From positions 1 through 28,681 of IMG/VR virus record IMGVR_UViG_2563366854_000003: a DNA stretch of 28,681 nt. One strand, given 5' to 3'. This document shows, one piece after another, positions 20,832 through 21,496 of the stretch (position 1 is the first letter of the stretch; each line of letters opens with the position of its first letter). Origin of the DNA: a virus. Its lineage: Duplodnaviria > Heunggongvirae > Uroviricota > Caudoviricetes. Below the pieces are notes generated by a model, which had not been told where the DNA came from, searched no databases, and saw only the letters and a program-made list of their open reading frames with translations. The position numbers and the translations under genes were made by a program.

Positions 20832-21163
20832 GTTTTGCTGATGCGCCGTATCGTCGCTGTATTCCCTCATTAACAGAGACCGCAGCCCGACAGGGAGACT
20901 CCTCTGCGCGAGTGTGCGGGGATAATCAAAAACGATACACACCGGGGTTTACCGCGTTAACGGAGCGCGGCGTTGTCCCCTCATAGTCGCCAGTCCGGTG
21001 CGATGGTGGAAGAAACAGGACGATGTGTTACCTCGCAAGCCCTGTTATGTCATGTGTCTGATTTGTGATTTAAGTCGGATAATTGTCGTTGCCATTAAGC
21101 AGAGGATTGATGACCGACAGGGCGGCATTGTTAGAATAAGACTTATTCTTATCTGTGCGGGGA

Positions 21164-21496
21164 ATGAAAATGAAAAGAAATCTTCCGTTAATTATTTTGT
21201 TGTCTTCTCTGGTTATGGGCTGTACGCAACATAAAACAGATATGCCCCGACAGTTGGTTAAGGCATTACCACAATATCCGGCCTATGCAGCGGCAAATTA
21301 TATAAAGGGACGGGTTGATGTGAGGTTTGATATTGGTGCTGATGGTACTGTCACCCGAATTGAGTTTATTCGTTCAGAGCCGCACCATCTGTTTGATGAG
21401 CAGGTTGTAAAGGCGATGGCAAAATGGCGATTTGAGAAGGACAGGCCGTGTAAAGGCGTGAAGAAAACGTTTATCTTTAGTCCTTCTGCACACTGA
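21164..21496 (+). CDS. Lipoprotein with TonB C-terminal-like domain (moron)
   Basis: Signal peptide plus lipobox 'MKMKRNLPLIILLSSLVMGC'; mature part 'PQYPAYAAANYIKGRVDVRFDIGADGTVTRIEFIRSEP...' resembles the TonB C-terminal domain (YP...A...G.V.V.F.I...G.V). Confidence 0.6.
   Translation: MKMKRNLPLIILLSSLVMGCTQHKTDMPRQLVKALPQYPAYAAANYIKGRVDVRFDIGADGTVTRIEFIRSEPHHLFDEQVVKAMAKWRFEKDRPCKGVKKTFIFSPSAH

Follow-up and report, generated by a model that had tools for sequence, protein, structure and literature searches.

The window, by which we mean the whole 28,681-nucleotide stretch of DNA that was analyzed, is from a lambdoid E. coli prophage. Between the Rz/Rz1 genes and the packaging genes lies a short gene encoding a lipoprotein with a TonB C-terminal domain (CTD). 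Rz (20364 to 20831), with Rz1 embedded in it (20584 to 20769), is immediately upstream, so the gene is in the post-Rz moron slot, as the original prediction had stated. The features of the locus are the following.

21110 to 21137, plus strand: predicted sigma-70 promoter (-35 ATGACC at 21110 to 21115, 16-nt spacer, -10 hexamer TAGAAT at 21132 to 21137)
21133 to 21149, no strand: perfect 8-1-8 palindrome AGAATAAG-A-CTTATTCT, exact in the sequence
21135 to 21153, minus strand: Fur-box-like 19-mer GATAAGAATAAGTCTTATT, matching GATAATGATAATCATTATC at 13 of 19 positions and ending 16 nt upstream of the start codon
21159 to 21163, plus strand: Shine-Dalgarno-like GGGGA, read from the sequence, 6 nt upstream of the ATG at 21170
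21170 to 21496, plus strand: coding sequence (CDS), 108 amino acids (aa) plus stop; RefSeq WP_000828071.1, "TonB family protein"
21170 to 21223, plus strand: predicted lipoprotein signal peptide, residues 1 to 17 (MKR, hydrophobic core, lipobox LVMG-C18, with Thr at +2 and Gln at +3)
21245 to 21481, plus strand: TonB CTD, residues 26 to 104, equal to E. coli TonB 153 to 231 (Pfam, TIGRFAM, PDB alignment, and AF2/Foldseek)

The gene, its lipoprotein signal, and its spread

The open reading frame (ORF) that opens with GTG spans 21155 to 21496 and has in-frame ATGs at 21164 and 21170, which would give proteins of 110 and 108 aa, respectively. The protein had been described beforehand as a 110-aa lipoprotein with the lipobox LVMGC; the lipobox stands, but we prefer the shorter length. 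The 108-aa start has the Shine-Dalgarno-like GGGGA at an appropriate place, is the RefSeq choice, and is the only one (MKR...) found in phage 21 and all the relatives, and the 110-aa start is therefore less likely. A small upstream ORF (20998 to 21234), the counterpart of CPT_21_72 of phage 21, differs in frame and stop between the window and phage 21 and is probably not a gene.

Lipoproteins as a class have a basic n-region, a hydrophobic core, and a lipobox, [LVI..][ASTVI..][GAS]-C, at positions 15 to 35, and the prophage protein has all three. The sequence MKRNLPLIILLSSLVMG-C18 (the Cys18 codon, tgt, is at 21221 to 21223) satisfies the PROSITE PS51257-type lipobox rule, as do every full-length member of the family and most of the distant short homologues. 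The residue that follows the lipidated Cys (+2) governs outer-membrane sorting. It is never Asp across the subfamilies and distant homologues, and from the Thr found here we infer that the protein is sorted to the outer membrane (Lol type). The gene is under purifying selection, with dN/dS values of 0.12 to 0.19 versus the other subfamilies. These values, together with the kept lipobox, rule out a pseudogene or the remnant of a captured tonB.

At the gene the GC content falls to 0.43, versus 0.55 to 0.59 in the flanks. Among 138 phage records, 131 match only the post-Rz flank and have no copy of the gene, and in Stx phages the flanks are conserved whether or not the gene lies between them. It is a phage moron, i.e., a discrete, variably present insert with deviant base composition. 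Terminator prediction found none on either side of the gene. A Klebsiella phage, a Serratia prophage, and most of 40 distant IMG/VR loci likewise have their copies between the lysis cassette and the packaging genes. The gene occurs in about 30% of complete E. coli genomes, with phage 21, Nissle, and ST131 prophages among the carriers, and many homologues are encoded on chromosomes at sites that are not in prophages.

The TonB C-terminal domain

The mature part of the protein had been predicted to resemble the TonB CTD and not Bor, and this proved correct. The protein matched Pfam PF03544 (TonB_C) with 55.3 bits against a cut-off of 24.6 (E = 9e-15) and TIGR01352 with 55.1 bits against a cut-off of 27.1. 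Thus, the two features whose absence would have told against the original prediction, TonB_C similarity and a PS51257-type lipobox, are both present. In the PDB alignment the domain aligned without gaps to E. coli TonB 153 to 231 in 1u07, 2gsk, and 2grx, with 30 of 79 residues identical (38%). The AF2 model had a pLDDT of 86.5 overall and of >96 across the CTD, and it has the three-stranded sheet packed on helices by which the TonB CTD fold is recognized. Foldseek matched the model to 1u07, 2gsk_B, and 2grx_C (probability 1.00, rmsd 1.0 to 1.3 Å); compared with TonB from the BtuB and FhuA complexes, the rmsd was 1.0 to 1.1 Å.

E. coli TonB has the conserved residue at each column that is invariant in the lipoprotein family, the PxYP motif next to Q160 among them, and the functionally important TonB residues Y163, P164, F180, G186, F202, W213, and F230 are all retained. 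The prophage protein thus shares with the E. coli TonB CTD (residues ∼150 to 239; 1U07, 2GSK, and 2GRX) the fold, PxYP, the aromatic cluster, and the last strand, which pairs with TonB boxes. It differs in that it ends ∼5 residues short of the TonB C terminus and has Leu in place of Q160 and Tyr in place of R166, the residue that contacts the FhuA plug. Q160L is a functional tonB allele.

The N terminus is unlike that of TonB. It consists of the cleavable lipoprotein signal, and the CTD begins ∼8 residues after the lipobox Cys, without the TonB transmembrane helix and Pro-rich spacer and hence without ExbBD coupling. The profile for full-length TonB transducers (PRK10819 equivalogs) was not matched; the score was 73.6 bits against a cut-off of 315, and only profile positions 157 to 240 were covered. 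Whereas E. coli TonB is anchored in the inner membrane, the prophage protein would be lipid anchored to the outer membrane.

Other TonB/TolA-type domains among the fold matches (hits 17 to 25) bind varied ligands, and so the fold might serve another partner here, such as peptidoglycan, another envelope protein, or a host factor, in which case the gene would be a moron of the virulence or serum resistance type, as its neighbor bor/iss is. Bor of lambda and Iss are likewise outer-membrane lipoprotein morons in the Rz-to-cos interval of lambdoid phages, and in phage 21 and the Nissle prophage the TonB_C lipoprotein gene adjoins bor/iss. However, it occurs there together with bor/iss and not in its place, the two genes run in opposite directions, and the proteins are not similar in sequence (Pfam gave no Bor match). 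In addition, the conserved residues form the TonB-specific surface (PxYP, the aromatic cluster, and the last strand), and the association with Fur boxes described below points to the iron/TonB system. We therefore consider a partner outside that system quite unlikely.

The upstream region and transcription of the gene

The predicted -10 element is extended (TGtTAGAAT, with TG at 21129 to 21130), and its hexamer is kept across lineages as TAGAAT, TAAAAT, CAGAAT, and, in loci L138 and L140, TGTTAGTAT. The consensus scan of the region gave 3 promoter sites versus 2.2 expected, and so the match is weak when taken alone. The original prediction of a perfect palindrome overlapping the likely promoter was accurate on both counts. 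By itself, the palindrome is within chance; ∼0.45 perfect 8-1-8 palindromes are expected per window, and the window has four distinct palindromes with arms of ≥8 nt. Because chance alone could yield one, its weight comes from the comparison with relatives. Among 67 IMG/VR loci of the same subfamily (subfamily a), the palindrome is intact in 62 and has a C-to-T change in 5, but the flanks are almost equally invariant, so no special conservation of the palindrome can be demonstrated inside subfamily a. Phage 21 and Nissle have lost the right arm. At the P0009 locus the dyad has been maintained despite two double changes.

Fur boxes were scored by consensus matching to the 19-mer GATAATGATAATCATTATC. 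The score at 21135 to 21153 is insignificant alone because seven sites in the window reach 13/19. However, in at least seven lineages the relatives have Fur boxes matching at 14 to 17 of 19 positions at the equivalent place, immediately upstream of the gene and mostly 9 to 18 nt from the start; a score of at least 14 is seen in just 2% of random 150-nt windows. The lineages with good Fur boxes are Klebsiella, Raoultella, Serratia, and Erwinia, plus other prophages. The window site shares its start codon spacing and its TGTTAG...TTATC borders with L138 and L140. Because the relatives have Fur boxes at the same place, we read the palindrome as a Fur-box-like operator, and the window site is probably a diverged Fur operator. 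Thus, on the earlier question of whether the palindrome matches the site of a known regulator, its position agrees with Fur but its own score is low.

The palindrome might instead be a chance dyad or an RNA hairpin, and not a protein operator, in which case the gene would be expressed by late read-through alone. We give this reading appreciable weight, although we doubt it. The expected number of palindromes and the presence of others in the window, the conservation that is no better than that of the flanks, the C-to-T changes, the loss in phage 21, and the six other 13/19 sites are all in its favor. Against it are the location exactly where relatives have better Fur boxes, with the spacing and borders of L138 and L140, and the dyad retained at P0009. 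Given the weakness of the 7-bp stem (z = -0.8) and the lack of any predicted terminator, we rejected an RNA hairpin or terminator as the main function. Operators of a phage repressor (CI/Cro type) were also rejected, as the window contains no second copy of the palindrome with ≤3 mismatches.

Transcription also bears on a possible role in the lytic cycle. The protein, made from the late transcript, would shut down TonB-dependent receptors during virion production in the manner of Llp of T5, which would keep out superinfecting phages or keep progeny from being lost on debris. Alternatively, it would help the spanins to disrupt the envelope. Consistent with this, the gene follows the holin-endolysin-Rz/Rz1 genes directly and in the same orientation, with no predicted terminator between; the same position recurs at unrelated lysis cassettes; and the TonB_C lipoprotein family, PHROG 1267, is labeled "Rz-like spanin." This label is best read as a positional misannotation. 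A complete, separate Rz/Rz1 pair is already present upstream, and o-spanins are short Pro-rich lipoproteins paired with an i-spanin, whereas u-spanins are lipoproteins with a C-terminal transmembrane helix; the prophage protein, a globular, folded TonB CTD that does not end in a hydrophobic helix, is neither. As for receptor shutdown, the C terminus of phage 21 J is 57% identical to that of lambda J and 66% identical to that of JLK-2012, which carries a subfamily a gene. These lambda-J-like C termini suggest a porin-type receptor and not a TonB-dependent one, and so an Llp-like inactivation of the phage's own receptor is unlikely. The predicted promoter with its putative Fur-type operator points to expression in the lysogen, as does the retention of the gene in the Nissle icd element, a degraded prophage with a truncated integrase. 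Taken together, a lytic function seems improbable.

Possible functions in the lysogen

The best explanation, although we hold it at slightly less than even confidence, is that the protein is an energy-uncoupled TonB CTD decoy, tethered to the outer membrane, that competes for TonB boxes. The gene would be a moron of lysogenic conversion, situated in the late region, whose product holds a complete TonB CTD on a tether of ∼8 to 15 residues. Lacking the N-terminal transmembrane helix and proline-rich rod of TonB, the lipoprotein could not be energized by ExbB/ExbD. Its last strand (residues 94 to 103) would occupy TonB boxes by beta-strand augmentation, and the boxes could be those of TonB-dependent outer-membrane transporters, of incoming group B colicins, or of both. 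Occupied boxes would not engage TonB productively, which would reduce the entry of TonB-dependent colicins and microcins and of phages of the T1/phi80 type, at the cost of some siderophore and B12 uptake. There would be two transcription routes, late-operon read-through and the gene's own extended -10 promoter. Because that promoter overlaps the operator derived from a Fur box, the decoy would be made when iron limitation derepresses the transporters.

The original prediction had included the idea that the protein could act against TonB-dependent receptors and so keep out phages or colicins. This is plausible from the anatomy of the domain, the predicted outer-membrane tether, and the published dominant-negative TonB fragments. 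Periplasmic TonB fragments 33-239, 103-239, and 122-239 inhibit the activity of the TonB system (bioRxiv 10.1101/2020.01.05.895219). Like the prophage protein, these fragments are uncoupled periplasmic domains of TonB, but they are soluble laboratory constructs that need overexpression, whereas the prophage protein is natural, minimal (CTD only), and predicted to be lipid tethered beside its presumed targets.

A second precedent is given by T5 Llp and by Cor (phi80/N15/HK022/mEp167), which, like the prophage protein, are small phage-encoded lipoproteins. They lie in the inner leaflet of the outer membrane and exclude phages by acting from the periplasmic side on a TonB-dependent transporter, and acylation helps Llp by holding both partners in the membrane plane (bioRxiv 10.64898/2026.03.26.714494). 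Their function, which includes the exclusion of colicin M, is proven. However, their fold and sequence are unrelated to those of the prophage protein, for which PHROG and Pfam gave matches to TonB_C only and the PDB fold search gave TonB/TolA domains and no Llp. Moreover, Llp and Cor target FhuA specifically, through an allosteric effect on its loops, whereas a mimic of the TonB CTD should act on the TonB box, which is shared, and therefore have broad effects. The anti-phage defense profiles of PADLOC-DB gave only a chance-level match (E = 0.039). A search of the full-text literature for work on the function of TonB-like or TolA-like lipoproteins of prophages found none.

Several observations count against a decoy. 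The gene's wide carriage in E. coli (∼30%) extends to siderophore-dependent ExPEC lineages, in which constant, strong inhibition of TonB should carry a cost, and an inhibitor of iron uptake that is induced by iron starvation is paradoxical. The many nonprophage chromosomal homologues are explained at least equally well by a housekeeping function in iron physiology. The residue that in TonB contacts the FhuA plug is replaced, the Fur-like site reaches just 13/19 and has been lost from the phage 21 type, which is the most common subfamily in E. coli, and the promoter is no more than a consensus match.

The protein could, alternatively, have a modulatory or positive role in iron uptake. As a Fur-regulated outer-membrane lipoprotein it would bind the TonB boxes or plugs of transporters and in this way sort, prime, or ration a limiting supply of TonB among the receptors, for example favoring particular siderophore receptors. 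Another possibility is direct binding of a substrate that is being imported, in the way that ferredoxin is bound by FusB, a homologue of TonB. On this view, what the prophage copy confers would be fitness in host niches that are poor in iron. The strong Fur boxes before the chromosomal, nonphage homologues in Serratia, Klebsiella, Raoultella, and Erwinia favor this role. So do the sitABCD Fe/Mn transporter that phage 21 additionally carries, the iss gene in the ExPEC icd prophage, and the complex of the FusB CTD with ferredoxin (9hi3) among the fold matches. However, energy transduction is impossible without a link to ExbBD, the published uncoupled periplasmic fragments of TonB are all inhibitory, and we know of no mechanism by which a CTD anchored in the outer membrane would promote transport. 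We therefore regard a role in iron uptake as unlikely; were it true, a system that has been studied for a long time would have a new accessory component.

If the protein is a TonB decoy, then sensitivity to TonB-dependent agents, i.e., colicins, microcins, phages, and possibly siderophore-conjugated antibiotics of the cefiderocol type, is tuned by a prophage gene in ∼30% of sequenced E. coli, among them ST131, UPEC 536, Nissle 1917, and Stx1 phage lysogens. Superinfection exclusion or bacteriocin tolerance would then be achieved by a new mechanism, mimicry of the host's energy transducer instead of the masking of a single receptor, and the protein would be a natural minimal TonB inhibitor with which to study the engagement of TonB with transporters.

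Lipoproteins with the CTD of TolA suggest that the principle may be general. They are encoded by the lambdoid phage mEp460_ev081 ("TolA protein"), by Klebsiella plasmids ("tolA"), and in 888 of 5,426 E. coli genomes, and, like the TonB_C lipoproteins, they combine a lipobox with the C-terminal, partner-binding domain of a transducer. They differ in that their domain is that of TolA (PF06519) and in that no Fur boxes were found upstream of them. It is conceivable, although we put this forward tentatively, that decoys mimicking envelope transducers form a general and so far unrecognized class, spread on mobile elements of the Enterobacterales, both prophages (lambdoid and others) and large plasmids. 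These would be TonB or TolA CTDs without motors, attached by a lipid to the periplasmic side of the outer membrane, where they would capture the TonB boxes or TolA-binding epitopes that group B and group A colicins and filamentous and T1/phi80-type phages need to enter the cell, and the TonB version would be switched on through Fur by iron limitation, in step with the receptors that it guards. In at least eight Klebsiella/Pantoea plasmids, the gene for a TolA CTD lipoprotein is 3 to 5 kb from that for a TonB_C lipoprotein; in mEp460_ev081, it lies between Q and the lysis genes.

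Late region and setting of the TonB_C gene

The window belongs to an E. coli lambdoid prophage. Across the 801 nt compared, several ExPEC chromosomes match it at 100% identity; the insertion site of the prophage in NZ_OZ547038 is ompW. The gene studied here, which encodes a predicted lipoprotein with a TonB C-terminal domain (CTD), lies between the lysis and terminase genes.

Late-region features of the window
19188-19721, lysozyme gene
20364-20831, Rz
20584-20769, Rz1, embedded in Rz
338 nt, spacer between Rz and the TonB_C gene
21170-21496 (+), TonB_C gene
21628-21828 (-), YlcI/YnfO (DUF3950) gene, convergent on the TonB_C gene
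21870-22235, HNH endonuclease gene
22526-23089, TerS
from 23086, TerL

Directly after Rz, a noncoding stretch of ∼190 nt (20838-21030) is 96 to 98% identical in >130 phage records, including many Stx phages without the TonB_C gene, and ∼80% identical in phage 21. It matched no Rfam family, and could mark a recombination boundary or represent an unrecognized RNA or regulatory element. A 78-aa ORF (20998-21234, plus strand) runs across the promoter region into the start of the TonB_C gene; its counterpart in phage 21 is CPT_21_72 ("hypothetical protein"), and because the frame and stop differ between the two, it is probably not a gene. An imperfect 16-nt inverted repeat (75% complementary) lies at 21652-21686, within the 3′ part of the YlcI/YnfO gene. 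Elsewhere in the window, matches at the Rfam gathering threshold were the STnc100 sRNA (15735-15925), the sok antitoxin RNA of a hok/sok module (10617-10792), DicF (4537-4588, minus strand), and two tRNAs (15312-15468) downstream of the Q region.

A TonB C-terminal domain on a predicted lipoprotein

The original prediction was of a 110-aa lipoprotein with the lipobox LVMGC. The lipobox stood, satisfying a PS51257-type rule in the window protein and in every full-length relative, but the length is probably shorter. There are two candidate ATGs, at 21164 (110 aa) and 21170 (108 aa), and the latter is favored because it is preceded at 6 nt by a GGGGA Shine-Dalgarno sequence, because the RefSeq call (WP_000828071.1, "TonB family protein") starts there, and because all relatives have a single MKR... 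start. The predicted lipoprotein signal (residues 1 to 18) consists of MKR, a hydrophobic core, and the lipobox LVMG-C18. The +2 residue is Thr in the window protein and T, S, or A, never Asp, among its relatives. A linker of 8 residues separates the lipobox Cys from the TonB CTD (residues 26 to 104).

The predicted resemblance of the mature part to the TonB CTD was borne out by Pfam TonB_C (E = 9e-15) and by TIGR01352, which scored above its cutoff. Residues 153 to 231 of E. coli TonB align without gaps to residues 26 to 104, with 30 of the 79 identical. The AF2 model has pLDDT values of >96 across the domain and superposes at 1.0 to 1.3 Å on solved TonB structures (1U07 and the TonB chains in complex with BtuB and FhuA). 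TonB residues Y163, P164, F180, G186, F202, W213, and F230 are kept, whereas Q160, R166, and Y215 are replaced by Leu, Tyr, and Phe, respectively. The protein falls short of the full-length TonB equivalog models (73.6 bits versus 315) because it lacks both a membrane helix and a Pro-rich rod. It is therefore the carrier of a TonB_C domain and not a TonB.

The upstream palindrome and Fur boxes

A perfect palindrome, AGAATAAG-A-CTTATTCT, had been reported at 21133-21149 overlapping the likely promoter. The sequence is exact, and it does overlap an extended −10 (TGtTAGAAT), the sole plus-strand promoter-like site predicted upstream of the gene. Taken alone, the palindrome does not stand out. The expectation is about 0.45 such palindromes per window, against four perfect ones observed; this one is not repeated elsewhere in the window, gives no convincing RNA hairpin, and is conserved no better than its flanks. 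In phage 21 its right arm is deleted. Further perfect palindromes are TAAAGTTACGGTAACTTTA (18824-18842, inside ORF 18774-19124), GGGAGGCGTGCGCCTCCC (26765-26782), and the 18-bp CAGTTAACATGTTAACTG (22328-22345, between the HNH endonuclease gene and that for the terminase small subunit), possibly a site related to packaging or to HNH.

The Fur box consensus is GATAATGATAATCATTATC. We aligned upstream regions on the start codon and scored matches of 19 to this consensus. Most lineages have a good Fur box just before the start codon, mostly 9 to 18 nt upstream, and 35 to 48 nt upstream in three of them (L011, L013, and L016).

Fur boxes upstream of TonB_C lipoprotein genes
Serratia grimesii, 17/19
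Klebsiella sp., 16/19
Erwinia typographi, 16/19
Serratia prophage (L013), 16/19
IMG/VR locus L138, 16/19
IMG/VR loci L139-143, 15/19
Raoultella, 15/19
Klebsiella phage/plasmid type, mostly 14/19 (12-14)
Pantoea, 14/19
S. marcescens, 14/19

A score of ≥14 was reached by 2% of random 150-nt windows and by 4.7% of ORF-upstream regions, a control set that still includes these TonB_C genes themselves. The element in the window scores 13/19 (21135-21153, ending 16 nt before the ATG), as do six other sites in the window. Because relatives carry Fur boxes before the start codon, and because the borders of the window element match those in L138 and L140 (TGTTAG...TTATC versus tgttAGTATTGATAATCATTATC), we read the palindrome as a diverged, putative Fur-type operator overlapping the −10.

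Distribution and possible role of the family

An exhaustive HMMER search found many lipoproteins of 107 to 135 aa with one TonB_C domain each. Klebsiella phage ST13-OXA48phi12.4 has a 41%-identical homologue in the slot between the lysis cassette and the HNH/terminase genes, and the Serratia prophage has a member there too; the same slot is used in most members of a further set of 40 IMG/VR prophage contigs, among which the lysis cassettes are mutually unrelated. Other members are on plasmids (Klebsiella, Pantoea, and Salmonella) or in ordinary chromosomal neighborhoods (Raoultella, Klebsiella, Serratia, Erwinia, and Pantoea). The family corresponds to phrog_1267 (E = 5e-42, full length), whose label, "Rz-like spanin" in the lysis category, looks like a positional misannotation.

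E. coli has two subfamilies, a (the window type) and b, which are ∼72% identical. Subfamily b includes a protein of the classical phage 21 whose annotation reads "TonB C-terminal domain protein," and is also carried by phages ev017 and Perceval and by the icd-integrated prophage of Nissle 1917, UPEC 536, and ST131. Of 5,426 complete E. coli genomes, 414 have subfamily a and ∼1,200 have subfamily b, together ∼30%. Between subfamilies, dN/dS is 0.12 to 0.19, with dS up to 1.7. The gene has a GC content of 0.43 versus 0.55 to 0.59 in its flanks, and many Stx phages have the post-Rz flank without it; AT-richness and presence or absence beside a common flank are hallmarks of a moron, an extra gene inserted between conserved phage genes. 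Frameshift alleles of subfamily b (P0012, P0013, P0016, and P0018-P0020) replace the last β-strand from near codons 88 to 98. One of them, P0012, is a 1-nt deletion and stands for 130 member sequences. They could be either genuine loss-of-function alleles or errors of assembly. Subfamily b, the commonest in E. coli, has also lost the Fur-like element, and this and the strand loss could reflect cost or decay.

The simplest reading is that the protein would act as a decoy. The lipid and <15 residues would tether a TonB partner-binding domain that cannot be energized to the leaflet where the TonB boxes of transporters emerge, and there it would vie with TonB for binding to TonB boxes, whether those of transporters, those of group B colicins, or both. 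The gene would be expressed both by late read-through and from an iron-responsive promoter. TonB-dependent transport is blocked by periplasmic fragments of TonB (bioRxiv 10.1101/2020.01.05.895219), and the phage lipoproteins Llp and Cor, in the inner leaflet of the outer membrane, disable FhuA from its periplasmic face, an action aided by confinement to two dimensions (bioRxiv 10.64898/2026.03.26.714494). By analogy, the decoy would belong with the phage outer membrane lipoproteins that shut TonB-dependent routes of entry. It is unlikely to inactivate the receptor of its own phage in the manner of Llp, because phage 21 and JLK-2012 both have a J C-terminus similar to that of lambda J, a resemblance that speaks against this reading without pointing to a target. 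The chromosomal homologues with Fur boxes suit a part in iron physiology as well as they suit defense. A broad TonB blocker should be harmful to siderophore-dependent ExPEC, and an inhibitor of iron uptake induced by iron starvation would be odd.

Lipoproteins with a TolA CTD offer a parallel that supports, by analogy, a general decoy principle. One is encoded between Q and the lysis genes of lambdoid phage mEp460_ev081 (L106 3989-4417; lipobox IIIG-C), and its gene is present in 888 of 5,426 E. coli genomes. Another, on K. pneumoniae plasmid pPM48TC_140 (L104 2652-3089; lipobox LITA-C; Pfam TolA E = 5e-24), occurs on 750 plasmid records; at least 8 plasmids carry a TonB_C lipoprotein 3 to 5 kb away from it. 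RefSeq names these proteins "cell envelope integrity protein TolA." No Fur box was found upstream of the TolA-type genes.

The existence of the gene is not new, since annotations have described it as TonB-like from the EDL933 genome onward; the ev017 record cites [quoted passage not shown] In full-text literature searches and in a 2024 review of superinfection exclusion, in which Cor is the sole entry for FhuA, we found no functional study of a prophage TonB-like lipoprotein. As far as can be told, the lipoprotein-decoy reading, the family-wide link to Fur boxes, and the parallel with TolA-CTD lipoproteins are new.

Among the cargo of phage 21 is the Fe/Mn ABC transporter sitABCD (L019 10968-13001). 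The related ExPEC/Nissle prophage (E. coli Nissle icd prophage, L020 16363-19529) has a gene for an ompC-like porin, placed between Q and the lysis genes, and iss adjoining the TonB_C gene. Thus, cargo genes for envelope and iron functions cluster in one prophage type.
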